From Kiritimatiellia bacterium (GTDB lineage Bacteria > Verrucomicrobiota > Kiritimatiellia > JAAZAB01), in contig JAXGPF010000004.1 of assembly GCA_040767085.1 (NCBI GenBank), positions 288,001-352,000 of the forward strand: DNA of 64,000 bases. Direction: 5' to 3'. Shown piece by piece: positions 1 through 40,116 of this stretch (position 1 is its first letter; every line of letters begins with the position of its first letter). The notes under the pieces were generated by a model. That model saw nothing but the letters and a program-made list of their open reading frames with translations, was not told where the DNA came from and made no database searches. Made by a program: the position numbers and the translations under genes.

Positions 1-1948
1 AATCCCAGGCCGCGGCGGCGCCGGCGTTAAAATTACGCCGCGGTCCCGCATCCAGCAGCAGCGCGCTTTCGCCGTTCGACCGCCGGAAATTTTCGGCGGA
101 CTCGCCCGGTTTGATTTCGTAAAATTCATTCATCACTCCGCAGGGATAGCCATACCGGTGCCAATGATGATCGTAGGCGCCCAGGTGATCGTAGCCGGAG
201 ACGGTTTGGCACATGCGGGCGGTTTCAAGATTGTATTTGTACAACAGGCGCGCCCAGGCGCACGAGTTGCGGTAATAGCGGGCCGCGCGGCTGAGCAACC
301 CGGCCCGCGCCAGGTAACGGCAGGCCGTAGCGTATAATGCCGTCCCGATCCGCGTGCCGGCATACCGGTTTTCAAGGTCCAAATCCAGGTAGGTGCCGGT
401 AATGCCGATTTCGTGCGCCAGGCAGGGCCGCTGATACGCCTTCAACCGGCGGTCAATGACGCGCCTATCGCCGCGGCTGATGGAATGGGTGTAGCTGAGC
501 ATGCCCCAGCAATAAGGCGCGAATACATCGGCGAATTTTTTCAATTGCGCTAATTTGCCCGGGTGATGCGGATAAGGCCGGGCGACAGCCCCCGGGCCCA
601 AATGCGCCGGATCGCCATATTCCACACCGCGCAGGGCGGATTGGGGATTAAACAGCGCATCCGGCGCCTCCCGCCGCGCAATAACCGCCATCCGCCGCAG
701 CATTTTCAGCCGTGGCGCATCAATGCATTCCTCGTTCCCGCAGGCATACAGGACCACCGCGGGATGGGTGCGGCCGTGGCGCAAAATTCGCCGCCAATCG
801 GCAGCATCGAATCCGTGATACGCCTCAAGTTGTACCAGCATCCCGGCTTCATCCGCCGCCTTCAAGTAAGCCTCCCCCGGGACCCAGGTGTGGAAACGGA
901 TCCAATTATAACCCAATTCCTTTAACTTCCGGCAATTTTCCAGGTAAAAAGCCTGATCCAGCGGCGGCGTGGTTGTCAGCGGAAAATACCCATGCTCGCA
1001 CATGCCGCGCAAATACAACGGCTGGCCGTTCAAAAAGAGTTGATTCCCGCGGCGTTCCAGCAGGCGCAACCCGAATGGCTGTTCGACTTGATCAAGCAGT
1101 TCATTTTCGCGCCATAATTCGCAGATTGCTCGATATAGCCGCGGATCGCGGTCAGACCAGCAGATCACATCCTGGGCGGAGGTCGTCCATCTGGCTGTGC
1201 GTCCACGCGCCAGCGCAGCCCCGTCCAGCACCGTCCGCCCCGAATTCCATTCCGCCAGCCGGTAGCGCGTCTGCAAATTCCGTGCCTCTCCCGCGCCCGC
1301 CACGTCAACCTGCCATTGGATGGCCCGACCGCCGGCCGCCGGTTGCAAGTAAAAGTTTTCCAGCAGCGCCTGCCTTGTGATCTTCAACGTCACCGGGCCG
1401 CAAATCCCGGCGCTGTAACCGGCGTAGCCGCGCAAGTCGCAGCTCTCTTTGTCATGCGCAAGATTTGACACCGCCAGAACCAGGTCATTGGCGCCCGGTT
1501 TTACCCAGGGGTCCAGCCGTACCGTAAACGGCAAGCGATGCGTTGTCTGATGCGCCAGGCAACGGCCGTTCAGCCACACCCAGCCCTCGCCGACAACGCC
1601 GCCCACCGTCAACATCACCCGGCTGTGCCGGTCCAGCCCGTCTATCTTCACTGTCCGCCGGTACCAGCCTGTTCCAAGCAGATATGGCAGGGTCGTATTG
1701 GGTGGATGGGTGCCCATGGGAAACTCCACCGGCCGGTAATCGGGATTAAAACGCGCTTTGCTCCAACTTGTCAGTCTCCGCAACCGGTCGAGATGATCGT
1801 CCCAGTTTCCCGGCGCCGGCATGGCGGCTGCAAATTCCCCGGGCGCGGGCATAATATCCGGCGGGGCCGCGTCCGGCGGCTGGTAAGCGAACGCCCAATC
1901 CCCGCTCAAATCCACCGGCATCGGCAACCCCTTTTGCGCATTAATCAT
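1..1948 (-). CDS. Glycoside hydrolase family 2 protein (3' end runs off the window)
   Basis: Absent from the ORF track because it is open at the edge. Manual translation from ATG 1948: MINAQKGLPMPVDLSGDWAF...GWYRRTV...VWLNG (GH2 sugar-binding domain), then LKELGYNWIRFHTW...AADEAGMLVQLE and HPAVVLYACGNE (TIM barrel, acid/base NE motif). Frame checked at 904 and 7. Confidence 0.9.
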   Translation of the reverse strand, partial: MINAQKGLPMPVDLSGDWAFAYQPPDAAPPDIMPAPGEFAAAMPAPGNWDDHLDRLRRLTSWSKARFNPDYRPVEFPMGTHPPNTTLPYLLGTGWYRRTVKIDGLDRHSRVMLTVGGVVGEGWVWLNGRCLAHQTTHRLPFTVRLDPWVKPGANDLVLAVSNLAHDKESCDLRGYAGYSAGICGPVTLKITRQALLENFYLQPAAGGRAIQWQVDVAGAGEARNLQTRYRLAEWNSGRTVLDGAALARGRTARWTTSAQDVICWSDRDPRLYRAICELWRENELLDQVEQPFGLRLLERRGNQLFLNGQPLYLRGMCEHGYFPLTTTPPLDQAFYLENCRKLKELGYNWIRFHTWVPGEAYLKAADEAGMLVQLEAYHGFDAADWRRILRHGRTHPAVVLYACGNEECIDAPRLKMLRRMAVIARREAPDALFNPQSALRGVEYGDPAHLGPGAVARPYPHHPGKLAQLKKFADVFAPYCWGMLSYTHSISRGDRRVIDRRLKAYQRPCLAHEIGITGTYLDLDLENRYAGTRIGTALYATACRYLARAGLLSRAARYYRNSCAWARLLYKYNLETARMCQTVSGYDHLGAYDHHWHRYGYPCGVMNEFYEIKPGESAENFRRSNGESALLLDAGPRRNFNAGAAAAWD

Positions 1949-2295
1949 AAAACGCTCCATTCCATCCCGGCCTTTTTCCAATATGGCCGGATATCCACCA
2001 CCCTGCCCGTTGCCAGGGCTTCATCGGCGGCGTAAGCGGGCAAACAAGAGTTGATGCCATCGCGCATGCCGGCGCAGGGCGGCGCGCCGTCAACGATCGT
2101 GGCGGCAAACTCCGCGTGCATGATGCGGGCGCCCCCGGCATGGCCTCCGACGTGATCACACGCGCCTTCAGCCCGGTAGTAATGGAGTTTGCGGAAATGC
2201 GGCGAACAACGCATGACCATGCCGAGGGCGAATTTCATGCCCGTGGCCCGCTGCGCCTTTTGCATGCCCAGGAATTTATATTCAGTATGGCACAA
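1945..2295 (-). pseudogene. Gfo/Idh/MocA oxidoreductase remnant (internally deleted)
   Basis: 116 aa. ATGMKFALGMVMRCSPHFRKL resembles the end of the N-terminal domain and GGHAGG...DGINSCLPAYAADEALATGRVV resembles the C-terminal helix. The Rossmann motif and the middle are missing. Stop overlaps the GH2 start (ATGA). Confidence 0.55.
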
Positions 2296-2461
2296 ACAGT
2301 TTGATCAGAAAACAGCTAATTATCCATAATTTTTGGCAATCTGTCCCAGGGGTAGACAATGCTGGAATACGGTCAAAATCCGGGGTGCGGCAGCGCGACA
2401 CAGTCCGGAATGCAATTTTGGACTGCGGTGGCTCGACACCGCTTTGCTGCATGCGGCCGGA

Positions 2462-3646
2462 TCAGATTTCCACAATCTTCTGATACTTGGTGGAAAACAC
2501 TTCCACCCCGCCGGCCTTGATGCGGGCGCCGGTCTCCCAACGCAGACCGTATGTCTTCGCGGCCAGAAATGTGTCCACCTGGAAGGTCATGTTGGCGCGC
2601 AGCGGGTATTCCGAAGTGGTTTCCATCCAGGGGCGTTCGACTTCAATCATGCCCAGGCCGTGGCACGGCCCATACAGCAGGTTCCGGCCATAGCCGCGTT
2701 TCTTGACGAAGTCGAAAAACTTGCAGGCCACCTGCCCTGCCGGCACGCCGGCCTTCATCCAACTGATGGTCTTGAGATGCGCTTCCAAGCCGAACTTCAC
2801 CAAATCCTTCATCTTGGCGTCCATCTTGCCCATGCAGATCGGCAGGCCAATGCTGGGCGAATAGCCGTTAAACCGCGCGCCGATATTCAATTGCACCAGT
2901 TCCCCCGCCTTGATCACCCGGTGGCCAGGCCGGCCGATGGCGTGCGTGCTGTTGATCCCGGCCAGCACGTAGGTCGGATGCGCTTCGTATTCCGCGCCGG
3001 CATGGTAAAATGCCTGCTGCGCGATGCCTACCACCTGCAGCTCAGTCATGCCGGGCTTGATGTTGTTCAACACCGCTTCCACGGCCGCCTCGGAAATCTT
3101 GAAGGCCTGGCGCAGCATGGCAATTTCCGCATCGCTCTTGATCATGCGCATCTCGAACATCAACTCGTCGGCCTTGACGATTTTAGCGTCGGGCAGGGCG
3201 GCTTTGATTGCCTCAAAAATCGTGATCGGCATGGCAGGATACCCGGCGATGCCCAGTTTGCGCACGCCTTTCCCGCCGTTGGCCTTGCGGAAAATTTCCT
3301 CAAAGCTGTCCAGCTTGATCCCTGGATAATTCGGTTCCGCCGATTCGCGGTAATATAGAATCTTGCGGATGTCGCCGATGACGCTGTGATCGCGGGCAAA
3401 GGTTTCGCTTTCCGGGCCGATGATCAGCAACGGCCGGCCGGTCGCCGGCAGAAACACCCCCGCCGACTCGAAAAGCGGCCAGTAATTGGAGAGATAACGC
3501 ACGTTGGCGAAATCCGCCTCGTTGCTGTGGACCAGCAAGGCATCCAGGCCCCGCGCCCGGATTTTGCGCTGCAACCGGGCGTAGCGATTGCGGTACTCGC
3601 TCATCGGAAATTGTTTCAATACCTTCGTTTTTTTCGCTCTGGCCAT
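2462..3646 (-). CDS. M24 family (Xaa-Pro aminopeptidase/creatinase-like) protein
   Basis: Creatinase-type N-domain (LDALLV...NVRYLSNY), RMIKSDAEI, HGLG and LRWE motifs. Start chosen at ATG 3646 after AGAAAGGGAAA. Confidence 0.88.
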   Translation of the reverse strand: MARAKKTKVLKQFPMSEYRNRYARLQRKIRARGLDALLVHSNEADFANVRYLSNYWPLFESAGVFLPATGRPLLIIGPESETFARDHSVIGDIRKILYYRESAEPNYPGIKLDSFEEIFRKANGGKGVRKLGIAGYPAMPITIFEAIKAALPDAKIVKADELMFEMRMIKSDAEIAMLRQAFKISEAAVEAVLNNIKPGMTELQVVGIAQQAFYHAGAEYEAHPTYVLAGINSTHAIGRPGHRVIKAGELVQLNIGARFNGYSPSIGLPICMGKMDAKMKDLVKFGLEAHLKTISWMKAGVPAGQVACKFFDFVKKRGYGRNLLYGPCHGLGMIEVERPWMETTSEYPLRANMTFQVDTFLAAKTYGLRWETGARIKAGGVEVFSTKYQKIVEI

Positions 3647-31854: not shown

Positions 31855-31971
31855 GAATTTTGCTTGCGTTGGCGGCCGGCGGCGTTAAACTGTAAACATC
31901 TTAAGGATGCCCATTTGCCAGCACAACGGTTTGGACGATCGCAATTCAACCCCGAGGACAGGAGAACGGTC

Positions 31972-33063
31972 ATGCAAAAGTCAGCGCGGGCGGTGTTGTG
32001 GGCGGCGGTATTGGCGGCCGCGGGCGCCTGGGCCCAGGACAAGGAGCAGGTAACGGTCATCCGGCAGGGCGCCGGCGGCGAAGTGCAGATCATTTCCAAG
32101 GAACAAACTGCGCCGGCGGAAACGGCCCCCACGGACGCCGCGCGCGAAGCGGCGCGGGCCGTGGCCGCCGACGACACGCCGCGCAAGGCGCGCGTGATGG
32201 TGATCCCGGCGATTTTCGCCCAGGAGCAACGCCGGCGTGTGGACCGCGAGTTTTTCGAGCGGTTCAACATCACCGATCCGGGTGTAATTGAAAACCCGGG
32301 GTACACCAGTTACCTGATTGACGCGCTGGTGAATGTCCGCAAATTCGACATGCTGGAGCGCGAGGAACTGCGGCAGGTGGTCAAGGAACTGGATTTCGGG
32401 GAAAGCGACTACGTGGATGTGGAAAAAGTCGTTAAAATCGGCAACATGGTCGGCGCGGACTACATGATCATCCCCACCATCCGCTACCTGGAAGTTGACC
32501 GCGAAACCAAAAACGTGCCGTATGTCGGCGGCCAGCAAATCGCCATCCGCTGCAAATTCGCCACCAACGTGCGCACGGTGGACGTGGCCTCCGGCAAGAT
32601 CATCGCCTCCGGCGTGCGCGAAGTGGAAAAGAAGAAACGCCAGCGGGCCCAGGACTCCCAGCGCATCCTCGTCATGGACACCGTGAGCGAGTGCTACAAG
32701 GAATCCGCCATGCTGGATGCCGCCAAGATCGTGGATGTGGCCTACCCCATCCGCATCATGAGCATTGACGGCAAGACGGTCATGCTCAACCGGGGCCAGG
32801 GCGCGATCCTGCCGGGCGAAGTCCTGAAAGTTTATGCCGCCGGCGAAGTCATGATCGACCCTGACACCAAGGACAACCTGGGCTACCATGAAACTTACCT
32901 GGGCTCGGTCAAGGTCACCGAAGTTGACTTGAAAACCAGCAAGGGCACAATTATTGACCAGCCCGGAACAATCGAGCGGTTGGCTATTTGCCGGCGCACC
33001 GAACAGCCTACACTGGCTGACCCGCGCCTGCAGCCGCCGACGGCGGCGCCCAAAATCGACTGA
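31972..33063 (+). CDS. Secreted CsgG/HfaB protein with FlgT-like C-terminal domain
   Basis: Signal peptide; LIDALVNVRKFDMLEREEL..VVKE, GADYMI, RTVDVASGKI; VMLNRG...MIDPDTKDNLG; AGGAG RBS. Confidence 0.8.
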   Translation: MQKSARAVLWAAVLAAAGAWAQDKEQVTVIRQGAGGEVQIISKEQTAPAETAPTDAAREAARAVAADDTPRKARVMVIPAIFAQEQRRRVDREFFERFNITDPGVIENPGYTSYLIDALVNVRKFDMLEREELRQVVKELDFGESDYVDVEKVVKIGNMVGADYMIIPTIRYLEVDRETKNVPYVGGQQIAIRCKFATNVRTVDVASGKIIASGVREVEKKKRQRAQDSQRILVMDTVSECYKESAMLDAAKIVDVAYPIRIMSIDGKTVMLNRGQGAILPGEVLKVYAAGEVMIDPDTKDNLGYHETYLGSVKVTEVDLKTSKGTIIDQPGTIERLAICRRTEQPTLADPRLQPPTAAPKID

Positions 33064-33199
33064 GCCGGCAACCGGAGACTTGCGCCGGGCCCGGCCGCGC
33101 GGCGCCGCCTGTGCCCCGGCCGGCAAACATGCCTGGAACTGGAACCGGCTTAATGGCCGGGCCTTGGACCGGGCGGCCATCTGAAGGAAGGATGTTAAG

Positions 33200-33631
33200 A
33201 TGACGGCAAAATTATTGGGCATGATGGCGCTGGCATTCGCGCTGGCCGGGCTGGCCGGCGGCTGCCGCAACCCGGTGACCTCCGCCGGCGCCACGATGGA
33301 GAGCTACGCCGGCAACCAGGTCAAGGTCAACTCGCGGGTTTTCGGCAAGCATTTCCGCGTGGCCAACGTGGCGACAGCCAGGGGCCAGAACCAGTTGCTG
33401 AAGACCACCGTCACGCTGGAAAACCTCCAGCAATTTTCCATGGCTTTCGAATACCGGTTCCGCTGGGTGGACGCCGAAGGCATTGAAATCGCCACCGGCA
33501 CAACGCTTTGGATTTCCAAGATCGCCGCGGCGCGCGAAATGGTGCTGATGACCGCCATCGCGCCCACGAAACTGGCGGAGGATTTTATTCTGGACGCCCG
33601 TTTTGTTTATCCCAGCACGCGCTGGAAATGA
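33200..33631 (+). CDS. YcfL/DUF1425-like lipoprotein
   Basis: Lipobox AGGC; L.N......FEYRFRW.D.EG.EI......W............AIAP motif. Confidence 0.8.
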   Translation: MTAKLLGMMALAFALAGLAGGCRNPVTSAGATMESYAGNQVKVNSRVFGKHFRVANVATARGQNQLLKTTVTLENLQQFSMAFEYRFRWVDAEGIEIATGTTLWISKIAAAREMVLMTAIAPTKLAEDFILDARFVYPSTRWK

Positions 33632-33677
33632 TACGGTCGCCGAGTATACGGCATTCAAGCGACAAGGAGCAATCAGC

Positions 33678-34310
33678 ATGCGGAAATCTATGTATTGGAC
33701 GCGGGCGGCGGGCGGCCTGGCCGCGCTGGCGCTGTTAGCCGGCTGCCGGTCGGTGGACATACCCCGGACCGGTTACGTCTCGCCCGAGGAAGAAGGCGTC
33801 ATGACCATCGCCCTGGATGACCACGATTACGACCTGGCCGCCGAAGGCATCGCCCGCGAGATGTTCATGCGCGGACTGCCGAAAGATTATGTCGTCGTCC
33901 TGGGCCCGGTGGATACCCGCGAATGCCCCTATGACGTGCGGGTGATCCAACTGCAGAAATCGCTGCAAGTGATTTTTAACCGCGAAGGGACGTTAAAATT
34001 CCTGACAGCGGCGGACGCCATGGCCGGCGGCACGGCGGTGGATGAAATCTACAAGATCATTCAATACAACTGGCTGAACAGCAACCCCATGGACCTGGAG
34101 GATTTGCAAACCTTCGGTCAACTGGCCCGCATCAACGGTATTCTGTTCGGGCGCGTCTCATCCCTGGAACGCAACCTGCCGGGGGGCGGCCGAGAAATCA
34201 GCTACCGCTTTGTCTGGGAACTCACCAATACCAAAACCGGCGTGCTGGACATCTCCCATGAACAGCGCATCCGCAAAAACATATCACGGGACATGCTGCT
34301 GAGGCAATGA
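33678..34310 (+). CDS. LpoB/YcfM-like lipoprotein
   Basis: Lipobox LAGC; Y.SP.....T..LD.HD...A; ILFGRVSS...Y.F..EL.N.KTG....S; follows the ycfL-like gene as in ycfL-lpoB loci. Confidence 0.7.
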   Translation: MRKSMYWTRAAGGLAALALLAGCRSVDIPRTGYVSPEEEGVMTIALDDHDYDLAAEGIAREMFMRGLPKDYVVVLGPVDTRECPYDVRVIQLQKSLQVIFNREGTLKFLTAADAMAGGTAVDEIYKIIQYNWLNSNPMDLEDLQTFGQLARINGILFGRVSSLERNLPGGGREISYRFVWELTNTKTGVLDISHEQRIRKNISRDMLLRQ

Positions 34311-34727
34311 TGCTTAAACGGTTTTTATTTTCCGCGGCTTTGTCGCTCGGCGCGGCGCTGGCCGGACTCACCGGCTGCCGCTCGCATTCCGGACCGCCGC
34401 CCGCCCCGCCGCCGGCCTGGACGCTTTCCCCTAAACCGGCTGACAGCGTTTACTGCTATTTTGTCGGGACTTCGACCGGCCAGTCCGCGCCCGCCGCGGC
34501 GCGCGAGGCCGCTTACCAGGACGCCTTGCGCCAGATATCCCGGCACATCGTCAGCGAGGCCGGCCTGGGTCTGGCCGCCTTGCCGCCGGGCGGCATCCTC
34601 CTGCCGCTGGAGGGAGCGGAGATCATGCCGGGCTGCTTCTATCAAAGGCGCTTACCGGGGGTATGTGCAGGTGAGTTTCCCGATCGCCGGGAAGCGCAAA
34701 GTTATCGAACGGCTGCGCCAGCCGTAA
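34307..34727 (+). pseudogene. LPP20-like lipoprotein, probably frameshifted at ~34643
   Basis: Lipobox LTGC; P.W...P..D..Y.YFVG.......AR..A...A...I (LPP20-like). The +1 frame tail KGAYRGYVQVSFP aligns with NGGTRCWLQVSLP of paralog 37831. Confidence 0.65.
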
Positions 34728-34737
34728 GGGGGTCAAA

Positions 34738-35316
34738 ATGAAATCGGCAGCGAAATGGCTGGTGGTACTGGGTCTGGGCATGGCTTGCCTTGCGGCGGGG
34801 GCGGCCGAGTTAGGCCGGTCGCAGCCGGTAGCCGTGGTCAATGACCGGCCCGGCGGCAGCGGCAAAGCGGCCGGGCTGCAACTGGCGCTTTTCGCGCCGA
34901 TCCAGGTGTTCCCGGAAAACTACAACATTTACGGGCTGCGCCTCAACCTGATTTACGGGATTAACCAGGACCTGCGCGGCCTGGACTTGGGTATGTTCAA
35001 TGTCGGGCGTGGTTTGATGGAAGGGCTGCAGGTCGGATTAGCCAATCGGACGGCGGAATTGTCCGGGATGCAGCTTGGCCTGCTGAACTTCACCGGCGCC
35101 TCCGAGGGCGGATTTCAACTGGGACTGATGAATTACGCGCATGAATTCGCCGGACTGCAGTTGGGACCGATCAATTTCGCCAAGGACGTCAATGGCGCAC
35201 AAATCGGCGTCATCAACATCTGCGAAACCACCGCCGGCGCCCAGATTGGCCTGATCAATATCATTTCCCAAAGCGATTGGCTGGTCTTCTGTCCGCTCGT
35301 TAACGCGCAATTCTGA
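34738..35316 (+). CDS. Secreted LA_2272-like repeat protein (GxQxGxxN repeats)
   Basis: Signal peptide; GLRLNLIYG.N....GLDLG followed by six G.Q(V/L/I)G..N repeats; terminal P.VN..F. Confidence 0.78.
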   Translation: MKSAAKWLVVLGLGMACLAAGAAELGRSQPVAVVNDRPGGSGKAAGLQLALFAPIQVFPENYNIYGLRLNLIYGINQDLRGLDLGMFNVGRGLMEGLQVGLANRTAELSGMQLGLLNFTGASEGGFQLGLMNYAHEFAGLQLGPINFAKDVNGAQIGVINICETTAGAQIGLINIISQSDWLVFCPLVNAQF

Positions 35317-37241
35317 TGAAGACTTCCCTGCCATGCCGGTTTCTGCTCTGCGCCCTGGCGCTGGCGGCGCACAACGGCCGCGCGCTGACGCCGGATGAGG
35401 CGGGCGTGCCGAAGCGGCTCCAGCCGACCATCATGGGCACGGTGGACCTCAACGAGGGCGGCACCAGGACCCTCAGCATGTCGCGATATGCCTCCACCTG
35501 GCTGGAGTCCAACGAAAAAGTCAGCGGGACGCTTATCCGTTCCGAAAGGGCCAACTGGAATGTCTTCGGGCCGGGATCCACCGTAAACCCCGGTGAAGAT
35601 ACGGTTACCATTAAAGCCACCAGAGCCGGCCAGGGCTATATCCAGGGGTATCGTTATCTTTATTATATGGATAACGGCGTGGAGCGGAGAAACATCCTCA
35701 TCCAGATCTGGCTGCTGAAGGTGCATCCCCTGACCGATGGATCTTCCAACAATGCTCCGACCGGCTCGCCCGGCGGGGCATGGCCGACTGAGAAGCCGGA
35801 CATCCCCCGGGCCGTCATCAAGGGGCGGGCGGTGATGCGTGGAACGGACACCGGTGTGCCTGGCGCATATATTGAACTGATCGGCGCCAGAACCGGCACG
35901 TTGCGCACCAACTGGGAAACTGGCGCCGACGGCGGATTTAACATTAAGGCGGACAACATGCTGTCCGCGGACCGGTACGAAATTTTTATCCGCAAAGGCT
36001 CCGCCAATGCCGCCCGGGAAGATGCCGTGATGGAGGATTTATGGCCGATCCGCAGGTATTACGTGACCGTGACCCGCGACAACTGCCTGAATCTTAACCT
36101 GGGCCGGATCGAAATGGCGTCCGTCGAGGATTTATGGGGCGCGGACCGGACGGCCGGCGCCGATGCCGCCCGCCCGGAACTTGACATTACCCCCAAGGCC
36201 GGACCCGGCGCCGGCGGCGGCCAGACGACTCCATCCGGGCAGATACCCGGCGGCGGCCAAACGCCCGGATCGGCAACAGCCCCGGGCGCCGGCGGCGGTC
36301 AAGCGCCGGGAACCGGCCCAACCCCGGGCGGCGGCGGGCAACCTCCGGCGCCGCCTCAAACACCGGATGCGCCGGATGCCCCCGGCACACCCCAGCCGCT
36401 GGACGATAGTGTGCCGGTTTTAATCGCCCCCGGCGCGATCGGCGCGGCAGCGGCTGCCCAATCCCTGCAAATTGTATATAAAGGCTATGTTGAAGTAGAT
36501 TTCAACCTTAAGGCCACCATGACCTTAAAACTTGCCGGATCGGCCGTGACCGGCGAGTTATACGCGCCGCCGGTGTCCCAGCCCAATGTGCGGCTGCCGG
36601 GCGCGCGTATGCTGCTGGACGGCACGCTGGCAGGCGGCTGGGAGGATGGCGGCAGGATTACCGGGAGTTGCACCGGCCATATCCTGTGGCCGGACGGCAA
36701 GCAGGAAGAGCGCGCGGGCCAGTTTCAAATCGCAAAGGCCGGCGCGGAAATTCACTTCCGCAGCACGAAGTTTTATTATAACCACTACATTTTCGGCGCA
36801 TTGGGTATAAAATACGCCGGCGGCAATGCCGTAACCAACGCTGCCGGCACAAGCCTTAATTCCGTCTTGATCCTGATTGATGCTTCCGGCAGCATGCAGG
36901 GCGAAAAAATCAACCGGGCCAAGTCCACGGCCTGCCGGCGCATTGCCGAACTGGGGCCGGAGACCGAGTTAGCCGTGATCGCTTTCAGCGGCAATTCCCT
37001 GAAATTCCAGTTTGCGCCCATGGATGACGATGGGCGCGCGCGCGCCCAGGAAGCCGTCAATGGCGTCAGCGCCGGCGGCGGTACGCCCCTGGCCGCCGCT
37101 ATCCGCAGCGCCGGCAGTTATATACGCGGCAACGCCCGGTCGAAAAACAAGACTTTGATCATTCTATCGGACGGCGAAGAAAGCGAAGGCGGCAACCCGC
37201 CGGAGGAAATCCGCAAGCTGAACGATGTGACGGTAAATTAA
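35316..37241 (+). CDS. Secreted modular protein with Gly/Pro linker and C-terminally incomplete VWA domain
   Basis: Signal peptide; Ig/carboxypeptidase-regulatory-like domain (IKGR...GVPGA.IEL...TGADGGF); four GGGQ repeats; MIDAS DASGSM, GGTPL, LSDG; stops about 20 aa after the DG. Confidence 0.8.
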   Translation: MKTSLPCRFLLCALALAAHNGRALTPDEAGVPKRLQPTIMGTVDLNEGGTRTLSMSRYASTWLESNEKVSGTLIRSERANWNVFGPGSTVNPGEDTVTIKATRAGQGYIQGYRYLYYMDNGVERRNILIQIWLLKVHPLTDGSSNNAPTGSPGGAWPTEKPDIPRAVIKGRAVMRGTDTGVPGAYIELIGARTGTLRTNWETGADGGFNIKADNMLSADRYEIFIRKGSANAAREDAVMEDLWPIRRYYVTVTRDNCLNLNLGRIEMASVEDLWGADRTAGADAARPELDITPKAGPGAGGGQTTPSGQIPGGGQTPGSATAPGAGGGQAPGTGPTPGGGGQPPAPPQTPDAPDAPGTPQPLDDSVPVLIAPGAIGAAAAAQSLQIVYKGYVEVDFNLKATMTLKLAGSAVTGELYAPPVSQPNVRLPGARMLLDGTLAGGWEDGGRITGSCTGHILWPDGKQEERAGQFQIAKAGAEIHFRSTKFYYNHYIFGALGIKYAGGNAVTNAAGTSLNSVLILIDASGSMQGEKINRAKSTACRRIAELGPETELAVIAFSGNSLKFQFAPMDDDGRARAQEAVNGVSAGGGTPLAAAIRSAGSYIRGNARSKNKTLIILSDGEESEGGNPPEEIRKLNDVTVN

Positions 37242-37246
37242 CCGTT

Positions 37247-37825
37247 ATGAAAATTTTACGTCCCATGATGATGTGCGCAGCGGCGGCGCTGGTTTGCGCG
37301 CAGGCCGGCGCGCAGGATGCCGCACCCGGACCGGCGAGCCGGGATTTAATCAACATTGTCGCCGTCGGCTATGACATTGAAAACAATCCCAAGGCCCAGC
37401 AAATGCTCCAGGATATGGCGCAGGCCGCCCGCGATGCCGGCGCCGGCGGCACCGTGATCATGGCCGGGCAGGACGAGGCACAACTGGACCAGGCCATGCA
37501 AAAGGCCATGACCATCGCCACCCAGCCGCCGGCGCCGGCATACCGGCTGGAACTCAAGACCGCTTCCGCCGCGCCGGGGGCCAGGATCGTGGTGGTGCAT
37601 TCCGATTTCCCGGCAACGAACCGCGAGGCCTGGATTGCCTTTTATGAAAAGGCCGGCGACCGCGACCAGGACTATCTGTCTTATACCTTTCTGGCCAACC
37701 TGAACGATCGGACATACGATGTCACGGCCCCTGACAAGCCCGGCGCCGAGTATCATTTCCGCCTTTTTTTAACCAAGGAATACGATTGCGCCGCCCGCAG
37801 TGAACCAGTCCATATCGCCGAATAA
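37247..37825 (+). CDS. Secreted protein: VWA C-terminal-like segment plus Ig-like domain
   Basis: Own signal peptide (AQAGA|Q); INIVAVGYDI...AQQMLQDMAQA...GG....A.QDEAQLDQAM; then AWIAFY...YLSY...APDKPG.EY.FRLF beta-sandwich. Confidence 0.7.
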   Translation: MKILRPMMMCAAAALVCAQAGAQDAAPGPASRDLINIVAVGYDIENNPKAQQMLQDMAQAARDAGAGGTVIMAGQDEAQLDQAMQKAMTIATQPPAPAYRLELKTASAAPGARIVVVHSDFPATNREAWIAFYEKAGDRDQDYLSYTFLANLNDRTYDVTAPDKPGAEYHFRLFLTKEYDCAARSEPVHIAE

Positions 37826-37830
37826 TCTGC

Positions 37831-39081
37831 ATGAAGTTTTTCCGCCTGTTTTTGATGAGCCTTGCACTGCTGGCGGGTTGGCCGGCAGTTCCAGTTGGCG
37901 CCGCGCCGGATTACCGTCCGCTCTGGATCGAGCAGCCTAAAAGCGACGACAGCATTTACCTTTACCGCGTCGGCACCGCCGCCGCCGGATCGGAAACCGC
38001 GGCGCGCCAGGCCGCCCTGGTCCAAGCCGGCGAAATCATCCTGGATGAAATCCTCGCGCAAAGCGGCGTGCCGGAAACAGAGCGCGTTGAATTGCGCGGC
38101 GCTCTGGCGTTGCGGGATTTGACGCCGGTTCCCGACGCCGTGCATTATGCCCCTGAAAACGGCGGCACCCGGTGCTGGCTGCAGGTCAGTCTGCCGTTGC
38201 AGGAGCGCGCCCGCCTGCGGCAGGACATCGCGGCCGCCATGGAGCGCCGCCGCTTGCAGGAGGAATTCGACGCCCGCATCAACGGGCAATGGCAGGAGGG
38301 CCGGGCCGCCAGCCTGCGGGGCGAATACACCCAGGCCCTGGCGCTCTTGCGGGAGGCCGAAACCAACTTTGCCGCGGTCCATCGCCCGGCATTTGCGATG
38401 GAGGAACTGCGCCTGCTGCTGGGCGATGTGCAGCGGGAACTAGGCCGGCCCCTGGACGCGCGCGGTTACTACGAAACCGTGGCCGGACTGGCAACCGCTG
38501 AAACCTGGCAGGCGCAGGCGGCGGCGCGCCTGGCGGCGCTGCCCGATCCGCCGCGCCTATGGCCGGCGCTGACCCGTTGGCAGGACCGCGCCGCGGCGCA
38601 AGTCTGCGTATTGCAGCCGGCCGGCGATCCGGCGGCATGGTTTGGCGAACTTGCCGCGGTGCTGCACCGCGATTTTCAAGCCTGCCGGCGGGATTTGTGC
38701 GACCTGGCCCAGTGGCCGCCGGAATCCGCCGCGCAGCTTTTCATAACGCGCCAGACGGCAGCCCTGGCCGGCGCCGCCCGCGCCGCATCGGCTGGAATGG
38801 TGCTGGTGATCTACGCCCGGGGGGATGCCACCGGTGGCGGGACGCCGCCGGAAACGGGCGGACTGCGCTTCCCCGCGCCGGATATGACCGTCCAATTCAT
38901 GGTGTTGGACGCCATCGCCAATCGCATCGTATATGCCGGCGAATTCCGGGAAATGCGCGGCCGGCGCGGCAACGCGCGGCTGGCCGAACGGATTGCGTCA
39001 ATCCTGATCAACAATTACCTGGCGCCCAAATGTCCGGCGCTGGCGCCCGGGCCAGGCGGCGCGGCGGCCGGCCCCGGATAA
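37831..39081 (+). CDS. Secreted LPP20-like/TPR-like protein
   Basis: Signal peptide; P.W...P..D.S.Y.Y.VG......AR.AA N-domain; TPR-like helices (GEYTQALALL..., LLGDVQRELG....ARGYY). Confidence 0.68.
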   Translation: MKFFRLFLMSLALLAGWPAVPVGAAPDYRPLWIEQPKSDDSIYLYRVGTAAAGSETAARQAALVQAGEIILDEILAQSGVPETERVELRGALALRDLTPVPDAVHYAPENGGTRCWLQVSLPLQERARLRQDIAAAMERRRLQEEFDARINGQWQEGRAASLRGEYTQALALLREAETNFAAVHRPAFAMEELRLLLGDVQRELGRPLDARGYYETVAGLATAETWQAQAAARLAALPDPPRLWPALTRWQDRAAAQVCVLQPAGDPAAWFGELAAVLHRDFQACRRDLCDLAQWPPESAAQLFITRQTAALAGAARAASAGMVLVIYARGDATGGGTPPETGGLRFPAPDMTVQFMVLDAIANRIVYAGEFREMRGRRGNARLAERIASILINNYLAPKCPALAPGPGGAAAGPG

Positions 39082-39084
39082 CCC

Positions 39085-39852
39085 CTACCGCCGCCGGGCC
39101 GGCGACCGGTCAATGCTGCAAACCCGCATCAGCCACCGCACGCATAAATCGCCCCAGGGATGCACGATCAGCAGGCCGGCGCCATGGCCGCCGTCGGGGA
39201 ACACGTGCAATTCATACGGCACGCCATGACGGCGCAATTCGGCGGCAAACATGAGACTGTTTTCCGGCAACACGCCCTTGTCATCGCCCGCGTGCCACAA
39301 AAAACACGGCGGCGTGCGATCGGTCACCAGGGTTTCGCAGGAAACTGACGCCCAATCCCCCGGCGGGGCGTCCGGGCCCAGCAGGTTGTTGCGCGAGCCG
39401 GCATGGCCATAGGGCGGCTGCATGGAAATCACCGGGTAACACAACACCCCGAAATCAGGGCGTAATTCCGCCGCGCGCCGCGCGCCGGCCGTCATCACAT
39501 GCGCGGCCAGGTGGCCGCCCGCGGAAGAGCCCATGACCCCGATGCAATCCTGGCGGACGCCGAATTCCGCCGCGCGCGTCCGGACCGTGGCCACCGACGC
39601 CAGGCCATCTTCCAGCATCTCCGGATGACGGTGGCCGGACGAGCCGCCCAGCCGGTACCGGGCCACGAAGGCGCAAATGCCGCGGGCCGACAGGTATTCG
39701 GCATAGCCGCGGCCTTCGTGCTCGGCCAAATGCCCGTAGCCGCCGCCGGGAAATATTATCACCCCGATCCCCTGCCCCTTCCGCGGGGCAAACACTTCCA
39801 ATTCCGGCGCCGGGCTGGTAGCCGCGCCGGGCAGGGCCGCATGAATGATCAC
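39085..39852 (-). CDS. Alpha/beta hydrolase (carbohydrate esterase-like)
   Basis: FPGGGY, GSSAGGHLA, LCYPVI, TPPCFL.H..DD, GGHG; GTG start 39852 with GGAGGAG RBS. Confidence 0.88.
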   Translation of the reverse strand: MIIHAALPGAATSPAPELEVFAPRKGQGIGVIIFPGGGYGHLAEHEGRGYAEYLSARGICAFVARYRLGGSSGHRHPEMLEDGLASVATVRTRAAEFGVRQDCIGVMGSSAGGHLAAHVMTAGARRAAELRPDFGVLCYPVISMQPPYGHAGSRNNLLGPDAPPGDWASVSCETLVTDRTPPCFLWHAGDDKGVLPENSLMFAAELRRHGVPYELHVFPDGGHGAGLLIVHPWGDLCVRWLMRVCSIDRSPARRR

Positions 39853-40116
39853 AATTAGCTCCTCCGTTGATTGTTTAAAAACACGCCGGCTTGCGCGCCG
39901 GGGTTGGCATGCGCGAGAGAGACGCAGGCGCAGTTTGGATGTATCAAATTGAACATCCCGTGTCACGCTCAAGTTGCGGGAATGAGACGCCGGGGGTGTA
40001 ATACAATCCAATGCGAATTGACAAAACGAAGCAAGGAGGATAAAGTCCGGACAGAAAACATGACTCAGACCAGTTGGCGCGGCGGCTCGGCGCCGTAAAA
40101 CATTGCATGGCCCAGA

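Follow-up and report, generated by a model that had tools for sequence, protein, structure and literature searches.

The stretch of DNA analysed here (the window) comprises 64,000 nucleotides of a Kiritimatiellia bacterium (assembly GCA_040767085.1, contig JAXGPF010000004.1, positions 288,001 to 352,000 of the forward strand) and contains two adjacent open reading frames (ORFs), ORF1 and ORF2, between which a single VWA domain appears to be divided. ORF1 ends with the first part of the domain, referred to as the head, and ORF2 carries the presumed last part, referred to as the tail, behind an N-terminus that resembles a signal peptide (coordinates are collected in Table 1). The split is real, it is conserved, and it is under purifying selection. 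We infer that head and tail most likely rebuild one VWA fold in trans outside the cytoplasm. In the freely accessible literature that was searched, no VWA fold shared by two polypeptides was found to be described. Domain and principle (fold complementation, gene fission) are each known, and it is their combination, making up a small modular family in Kiritimatiellia and Phycisphaerae, that is apparently undescribed.

Head and tail of the divided VWA domain

ORF1 starts with a signal-peptide-like N-terminus, which is followed by beta-sandwich domains, a Gly/Pro-rich linker, another beta-sandwich and the VWA head at the C-terminal end. Residues 517-639 match positions 2-131 of the 174 positions of the PF00092 profile (42.4 bits, cut-off 23.8), which means that the VWA domain in ORF1 is truncated; VWA_2 (PF13519) is matched over positions 1-107 of 107 (49.4 bits, cut-off 27). 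The residues of the MIDAS (adhesion site dependent on a metal ion), D522-x-S524-x-S526, T590 and D619, are all located in ORF1 and are invariant in an alignment of 14 sequences. A first-pass annotation, made from the DNA letters alone, had described ORF1 as a protein with all MIDAS elements that stops early, and this is what the profile match displays. The elements of the head follow each other in the order beta1-alpha1-beta2-beta3-alpha2-alpha3-beta4-alpha4. In an AlphaFold2 (AF2) model of ORF1 alone, built on 14 sequences (mean predicted local distance difference test, pLDDT, 65.8), beta-sandwich domains and a low-confidence Gly/Pro linker precede a head of four strands and five helices with a pLDDT of ~75-88. 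ORF1, which stops at profile position 131 and provides four strands, does not contain a complete six-stranded VWA fold within one polypeptide. In Foldseek, the head can be aligned to solved VWA domains, which have 168-189 residues, along ~137-142 columns (target TM-score ~0.55-0.60), so that the head corresponds to roughly three quarters of the VWA fold. Its relationship to intact domains is also evident from hhalign, which places it on columns 7-136 of a profile of 15 intact VWA domains (E = 1e-30), and from BLASTP against the intact VWA protein of locus L042 (4e-13, residues 22-157).

The C-terminus of ORF1 reads ...LSDGEESEGGNPPEEIRKLNDVTVN and is followed by a TAA codon. As had been noticed in the first-pass annotation, the next gene starts 5 nt after this stop, and the coordinates confirm the distance; ORF2 lies in another frame. 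ORF2 begins with MKILRPMMMCAAAALVCAQAGAQDAAPGPASRDLINIVAVGYDIENNPKAQQMLQDMAQAARDAGAGG..., and its hydrophobic signal-like segment is succeeded by ...RDLINIVAVGYDIENNPKAQQMLQDMAQAARDAGAGGTVIMAGQDEAQLDQAMQKAMTIAT and then by ~95 more residues. Signal peptides of the ORF2 type were judged by a crude hydropathy scan and by inspection. The scan gives ORF2 a hydropathy window of 2.35 at residues 7-17, with K/R before it, and by inspection the N-terminus has K2 and R5, a core MMMCAAAALVC and, as candidates for an AXA-type cleavage site, AQA/AGA. The signal peptide had previously been called clean; by the crude scan and by inspection, this N-terminus resembles a signal peptide. That the ORF2 signal peptide could be a duplicate of the one of ORF1 (MKISLP versus MKTSLP) was considered and rejected, as a DNA alignment of the 5' regions shows generic composition only.

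An AF2 model of ORF2 alone (alignment of 20 sequences, mean pLDDT 80.8) has a disordered N-terminus, and the tail is modelled with a pLDDT of ~76-86 as a beta-alpha-beta-alpha unit, with strands at residues 37-42 and 68-73 and helices at residues 48-63 and 77-92. A search with a tail-only alignment of 10 loci (A4) retrieved intact single-gene VWA proteins, namely L039 and L042 from the Planctomycetota sample, L049 from the same family as the window and L050 from the same genus. With hhalign, A4 aligns to residues 170-216 of L042 (E = 8e-6) and to residues 166-207 of L050 (E = 1.3e-5). On the 15-sequence profile of intact VWA domains the tail occupies columns 135-187 (P = 0.0017), and 0 of 200 column-shuffled tails reached the observed score (24.0 versus a mean of 10.7, standard deviation 2.1, maximum 19.5). 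With the head on columns 7-136 of the profile, the two pieces thus adjoin each other without overlap as parts of one VWA domain, the cut lying in the loop between alpha4 and beta5. Judged by these profile comparisons, the tail (ORF2 residues 34-92) is homologous to beta5-alpha5-beta6-alpha6 of intact VWA domains, which agrees with the earlier proposal that the ORF2 N-terminus supplies the last beta-alpha-beta-alpha part.

A related pair occurs in a metagenome-assembled genome (MAG) of the Phycisphaeraceae (L034). This locus was located through its head, being one of 4 loci returned in a search with the head protein P0017, the others (L035-L037) being partial matches of 31-62 residues. Its head gene ends ...TDGEETCNGDPIAAARD and matches PF00092 positions 2-125 of 174, and the tail gene comes next, with a hydrophobic N-terminus, then VNIHVIGFDVDEATAQQLTAMAQAGGGRYYPAENEAQLSAALGQA, and then four PPC repeats. 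The L034 tail possesses a canonical GGGRYY motif and matches VWA_3 over positions 101-154 of 155 at E = 0.023, which is below the cut-off, and ORF2 in turn matches the L034 tail in BLASTP (4e-7) and in hhalign (5e-5). A VWA-plus-C-domain protein at L007, which had been a candidate for a close unsplit relative, was discarded, as BLASTP shows that the C-domain alone is what it has in common with ORF2 or the head. A Protein Atlas search with the tail returned no usable match.

Conservation, spread and modularity of the split

Three other studies, of landfill, an anaerobic digester and sludge, provide Logan contigs that span the junction between the two genes, with 0 differences and 0 indels over 36741-37793, 36700-37496 and 37047-37327. 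As the junction is identical in contigs of other studies, the split is no assembly or sequencing error, and no continuous gene, which the first-pass annotation had advised to look for across the junction, was seen there. Within the 41 related genomes searched, ORF2 is present in three further species of the genus (G001-G003), and no match was found in G004, the fourth congener searched. All three congeners with the gene keep the layout of stop codon, 5 nt and ATG; their ORF1 ends ...NDVTVN, and the stop codon is TGA where the window has TAA. The ratio of nonsynonymous to synonymous substitution rates (dN/dS) was determined by the Nei-Gojobori method for 6 species pairs with a dS of 0.28-0.79. 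The head, taken as the last 130 codons of ORF1, has values of 0.10-0.26; in ORF2, the tail (residues 34-92) has 0.04-0.19 and the C-terminal domain 0.13-0.24, and the signal-peptide region is more relaxed than the mature part (0.34-0.77). The low values on head and tail indicate that both VWA pieces have been kept by purifying selection after the split. Homologues with the same split are found in the three congeners, in other families of the Kiritimatiellia and in the Phycisphaeraceae, and since the arrangement is conserved in four species and a signal-like segment recurs in most tails, a plain nonsense mutation is indeed as unlikely as had been argued at the outset.

When residues 380-641 of ORF1 were used as a query, 37 proteins were retrieved. 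Nine ORF1 orthologues (P0002-P0010) are 605-643 residues long, are 60-84% identical over the searched part and have the common end ...RRLND[ML][TS]VxW. The same end is found in P0013 and P0014, the N-terminal parts of which are unrelated to those of the orthologues, and P0015 and P0017 (the latter from Phycisphaerae bacterium RAS1 according to NCBI) end ...GGDP[LV]AAARD. All 8 heads that were scanned stop at PF00092 positions 124-132, and at least four unrelated N-terminal architectures are seen among heads.

An exhaustive HMMER search with ORF2 yielded 314 proteins at E <= 1e-3. Among the 150 of these matches that were listed, 18 include the beta5 region, and each of the 18 is a protein of at most 279 residues in which the match begins by residue 48. 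Longer proteins match from query residue 53 on, mostly with the C-terminal Ig-like module and in a few cases from the distal half of the tail. The architecture behind the tail was read from 17 of the 18 beta5-covering proteins: most have an Ig-like domain, P0069 has coiled-coil repeats, P0160 has an LCCL domain, and P0086, P0166 and P0176 have a transmembrane helix and an FHA domain (FHA E = 4e-20); the PPC repeats of L034 are a further partner domain. The crude hydropathy scan detects an N-terminal hydrophobic segment in 19 of 21 tails, P0042 being ambiguous and P0176 having none, possibly due to a wrongly called start. A G[YF]D motif is located at residues 31-67 in the 21 tails.

In a class-level sample, 14 of 301 genomes match, and 9 of the 22 places listed cover the tail part. 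The four of these that lie outside the genus and outside G016 (L015, L016, L018 and L019) each follow directly on a VWA-head gene of the same strand. The N-terminal domains of these heads are unrelated to those of ORF1, and in L019 ~440 residues come after the head, which is internal. On the metagenome contig L033, an ORF1 orthologue ending ...NDMTVKW is followed after 9 nt by the gene of the transmembrane FHA tail protein P0086, so that the MIDAS-bearing head is a separate secreted protein there and the last third of the VWA domain resides on the FHA protein. Altogether, a head gene lies directly upstream on the same strand in 9 of 9 loci with a separate tail (G000-G003, L015, L016, L018, L019 and L033). 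This adjacency, which holds although the other domains vary, matches what would be predicted for a docking module. The junctions themselves differ: three loci have an ATGA overlap (-4), which suggests translational coupling, the gaps elsewhere are +5, +9, +16 and +35 nt, and all three frame relations occur. Gaps and frames that vary in this way fit coupled cistrons and speak against recoding. The family is rare, as a tail-only profile matches 5 of 401 genomes in a phylum sample, two of these matches being intact VWA domains, and 7 of 401 genomes in the Planctomycetota sample at E <= 0.01, most of them weak or left unexamined. Searches of the genome contigs with P0086 and P0013 found no relatives, and a search for related loci with the ORF2 alignment A2 yielded no conserved stretch.

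The first-pass annotation had named continuous homologues as an observation that would speak against a genuine split. Two fused genes were found, and both have deletions in the core of the domain rather than an intact one. In G016 (L005, minus strand, 1492..3504), a single ORF of 670 residues joins an ORF1 orthologue in frame to an ORF2 orthologue, with ...ELAVIAFS running straight into DIEASPEAQKML...; the segment from beta3 to alpha4 of the head, the stop codon, the signal peptide and beta5 are missing. P0006 has the N-terminal sequence of L005 but a normal complete head ending ...NDMSVNW, which makes L005 a strain variant or a misassembly. In P0012 (621 residues, from a single contig), nearly the whole VWA domain is deleted, and an ORF1-type protein is joined to the end of the tail and the Ig-like domain (...YAN followed by PVATLCGDQSQLDRAM...). 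If they are real, both genes would provide links of the Rosetta-stone type between head and tail proteins. An intact fusion of head and tail was not found, and a search for longer ORF2 homologues gave nothing, which is weak evidence.

Proposed rebuilding of the fold in trans and its alternatives

The strands of a VWA sheet are arranged in the order 3-2-1-4-5-6. A cut between alpha4 and beta5 therefore yields two contiguous blocks, beta3-2-1-4 and beta5-6, and because the blocks are contiguous the tail could join the beta4 edge by simple sheet augmentation. A likely course of events would be that an ancestral single-gene, Sec-exported VWA protein was cut by gene fission in the alpha4-beta5 loop. 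The upstream gene has kept beta1 to beta4 with all MIDAS residues, and the downstream gene, which is probably translationally coupled, has a putative signal peptide of its own in front of beta5-alpha5-beta6-alpha6. Both chains would then cross the membrane unfolded and separately exported, and the tail would dock on the exposed beta4 edge of the head to give a six-stranded VWA domain. The rebuilt domain would act as a non-covalent plug and socket that couples the cargo of the head protein to that of the tail protein. In the window it would tie a beta-sandwich array to an Ig-like domain, and in L033 it would connect a head of this kind with an FHA protein of the membrane.

Integrin I domains have a C-terminal helix that moves on ligand binding and stands in allosteric coupling with the MIDAS. 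With a rather slim chance of being correct, an extended form of the proposal holds that the split VWA domain is an exchangeable plug and socket that also signals, in that the head captures a ligand and the last helix, located on the other chain, passes this on. If true, this would amount to an integrin-like outside-in signalling in bacteria of the Planctomycetes-Verrucomicrobia-Chlamydiae (PVC) group by means of two separately exported proteins, including a transmembrane FHA partner, with parts that are shuffled between loci.

The rebuilding of one fold has to be weighed against an alternative that we regard as having a modest chance, namely that the head is a self-sufficient, shortened VWA-like domain for ligand binding and the tail a separate small alpha/beta domain, both being neighbours by virtue of a shared envelope system. 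A number of observations favour this alternative and count against a fold shared by two chains. The lone head reaches a pLDDT of 75-88 in AF2, a fair confidence that makes it conceivable for four strands to suffice, and the lone tail is modelled similarly (76-86); the alignments behind these models are shallow (14 and 20 sequences). The heads of P0011 (656 residues) and L019 (G249, reverse strand) are internal and have ~370-440 residues of other domains after them, and in P0022 and P0023 (~1000 residues) heads with the motif 'SDGxESCxGDP' are followed by low-complexity Pro/Asn-rich sequence without a recognisable beta5-alpha6. Truncated heads can thus occur in other contexts. The sequence relationship of the tail to VWA domains is also less obvious than that of the head. 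A Pfam search of ORF2 gave no match at E <= 1, only 1 of 20 tail proteins reached VWA in Pfam (E = 0.14), a profile search of the PDB with the tail alignment returned no VWA chain (the best match being designed helical repeats, E = 0.036), in BLASTP, ORF2 had no significant match to P0033 and L042, which are intact relatives, and hhalign gave no better than P = 0.015 in an earlier comparison that did not yet include the L034 tail. The first-pass annotation had made its proposal dependent on an alignment of the ORF2 N-terminus to VWA profiles, and such an alignment fails in direct Pfam searches and succeeds in profile-profile comparison.

Two independent domains would hardly be expected to match adjoining stretches of the same intact VWA relatives without overlap, or to be adjacent in all nine tail loci despite unrelated flanking domains. 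Going by the known topology, the cut would also leave a hydrophobic beta4 edge and a helix-packing face of a Rossmann-like sheet open, and on its own a beta-alpha-beta-alpha unit with two strands would probably be unstable. We therefore think that head and tail probably rebuild one VWA fold. As a separate observation on the internal heads, those of P0011 and L019 run past ...GDPxxAAGGLN[IV]K into domains that include CarboxypepD_reg, and a tail gene with an ATGA overlap follows.

A further possibility, which we consider very unlikely, concerns the partners rather than the fold: the tail could swap among several head-bearing proteins as a shared adaptor or competitor, so that the pairing would not be one-to-one. 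Heads with unrelated N-termini that end exactly like the ORF1 orthologues (P0013 and P0014) would suit such swapping, as would the ORF1 orthologue that is paired with a transmembrane FHA tail and not with an Ig-like one. The source genome G000 itself has a single tail match at E <= 1e-3, and the strict adjacency of the genes argues for cognate pairs.

Recoding by read-through and frameshift, which would make one continuous VWA protein from both ORFs and for which the short gap and the adjacency could be quoted, is scarcely credible, because gap, frame relation and stop codon vary between loci and because in a fused product ~33 residues belonging to signal peptide and linker would end up within the fold. 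The chance is just as negligible that the pair is a decaying gene, an ordinary VWA gene broken up by a nonsense mutation, a frameshift or an error of assembly, with ORF2 as an accidental frame: the truncated Pfam match and the 5-nt gap give this impression at first sight, and it is contradicted by the identical sequence in independent assemblies, by a split kept in four species at a dS of 0.3-0.8 with a dN/dS of 0.04-0.26 on both sides, by the same architecture in other families and another phylum, and by the hydrophobic segment in 19 of 21 tails.

Among known proteins, the intact single-gene VWA relatives ('SDGxETCGGDP ... VxVIGF/VVGYD ... GGGxY'; L050, L049, L042 and L039) come closest. They have MIDAS motifs like those of ORF1 and are exported proteins with signal peptides, as the products of the head and tail genes may be. 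They consist of one polypeptide, whereas in the window a stop codon, a short spacer and a start codon intervene in the alpha4-beta5 loop, together with a putative signal peptide and linker of ~33 residues. The integrin alpha-I domain and ANTXR2/CMG2 provide structural parallels, as the head aligns to 1sht and 6rhw_C over 137-140 columns at a root-mean-square deviation (rmsd) of ~3 A, and the whole ORF2 model aligns over 193 columns, albeit weakly (rmsd 9.3), to the VWA C-terminus and the following Ig-like domain of an ANTXR2 chain. Both are single-chain eukaryotic proteins, and their sequence relation to the pair in the window exists at the level of the VWA superfamily only. With respect to the principle, chaperone-usher pili are comparable. 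In these, a strand of another polypeptide completes an Ig-like pilin after Sec export, with the help of a chaperone and an usher. As in the proposed pair, an incomplete fold is completed by another chain, and the likeness is one of mechanism only: the pair in the window would contribute a beta-alpha-beta-alpha unit to a Rossmann-like sheet, and its fold is of the VWA type and not that of a pilin. No chaperone or usher families were found among the 8 neighbouring proteins scanned. The nearest case in the literature covered, a VWA-containing protein encoded by two adjacent ORFs, is cobT of the haloarchaeal virus HHTV-2 (PMC8651126). It differs from the pair in the window, as cobT is split between domains with the whole vWA on one ORF, and is cytoplasmic and without signal peptides.

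Gene neighbourhood and meaning of the split

Table 1. Positions of the split VWA pair, its parts and the following gene in the window
Feature	Position	Strand	Remarks and basis
ORF1, 'head' protein	35316..37241	+	641 aa; ORF list
VWA 'head'	36858..37238	+	ORF1 residues 515-641; Pfam, AF2, Foldseek, hhalign
Junction: ORF1 TAA, 5-nt spacer, ORF2 ATG	37239..37249	+	sequence
ORF2, 'tail' protein	37247..37825	+	192 aa; frame differs from ORF1
Signal-peptide-like N-terminus of ORF2	37247..37312	+	residues ~1-22; hydropathy
VWA 'tail'	37346..37522	+	ORF2 residues 34-92; AF2, hhalign
Ig-like beta-sandwich of ORF2 and stop codon	37538..37825	+	residues ~98-192; AF2, Foldseek
ORF3	37831..39081	+	416 aa, 5 nt downstream of ORF2

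The part of ORF2 behind the tail is a beta-sandwich (residues 101-190 in the AF2 model, pLDDT ~95). Foldseek finds it to resemble SKICH and other Ig-like domains (E = 2e-5), and VIA aligns it with beta-sandwich domains at Z 11.9-9.0, with all rows falling on residues 96-192. AF2, Foldseek and VIA thereby agree with the earlier assignment of an Ig-like domain behind the tail. The wide VIA-align search of the ORF2 model gave no row on the tail part. This C-terminal module (37538-37822) is without a Pfam family and is present in most of the 314 ORF2-matching proteins (E <= 1e-3), often in 3-9 tandem copies and in proteins of up to ~2500 residues.

ORF3 stays behind ORF2 in G001-G003 and in G016 and probably belongs to the same operon as ORF1 and ORF2; Pfam gives weak TPR matches only. 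Behind the signal peptide, the N-terminus of ORF3 and a small ORF at 34307-34738 have, by eye, the motif P-x-W ... PK-x-(D)DS-[VI]-Y-x-Y-x-[VI]-G ... AAR in common, and look like paralogous domains. Directly upstream of ORF1 (34738-35313), a protein of 192 residues is encoded that matches LA_2272-family surface repeats and the VC2662 family (NCBIfam, E = 1e-21 and 3e-14). Further upstream of the split pair (31969-34307), genes for CsgG-like, DUF1425 (YcfL-like) and LpoB-like envelope lipoproteins are located, and in L018 (1-1450) DUF1425-like and LpoB-like genes adjoin the head/tail pair of G183 on the opposite strand. The CsgG-like/DUF1425/LpoB-like cluster may be a conserved envelope system. 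On the minus strand, an ORF of 308 residues (39085-40011) converges on the operon and has, in its translation, the motifs GGGYG... and SAGGHLA of alpha/beta-hydrolase esterases.

As modules for adhesion and protein docking, VWA domains belong to the most common ones throughout life, and the literature covered here describes them as folds of a single chain. In scope, the divided domain is a niche structural and evolutionary finding and no new kind of system. If head and tail do rebuild one domain, this would be a natural fold complementation of a Rossmann-like domain outside the cytoplasm, and it could yield a naturally occurring split tag able to assemble by itself after Sec export. Secreted beta-sandwich proteins would also be physically connected to partners such as FHA proteins of the membrane, and the rebuilding would explain why many genes with a 'truncated VWA' in MAGs of Kiritimatiellia and Phycisphaerae are no pseudogenes.

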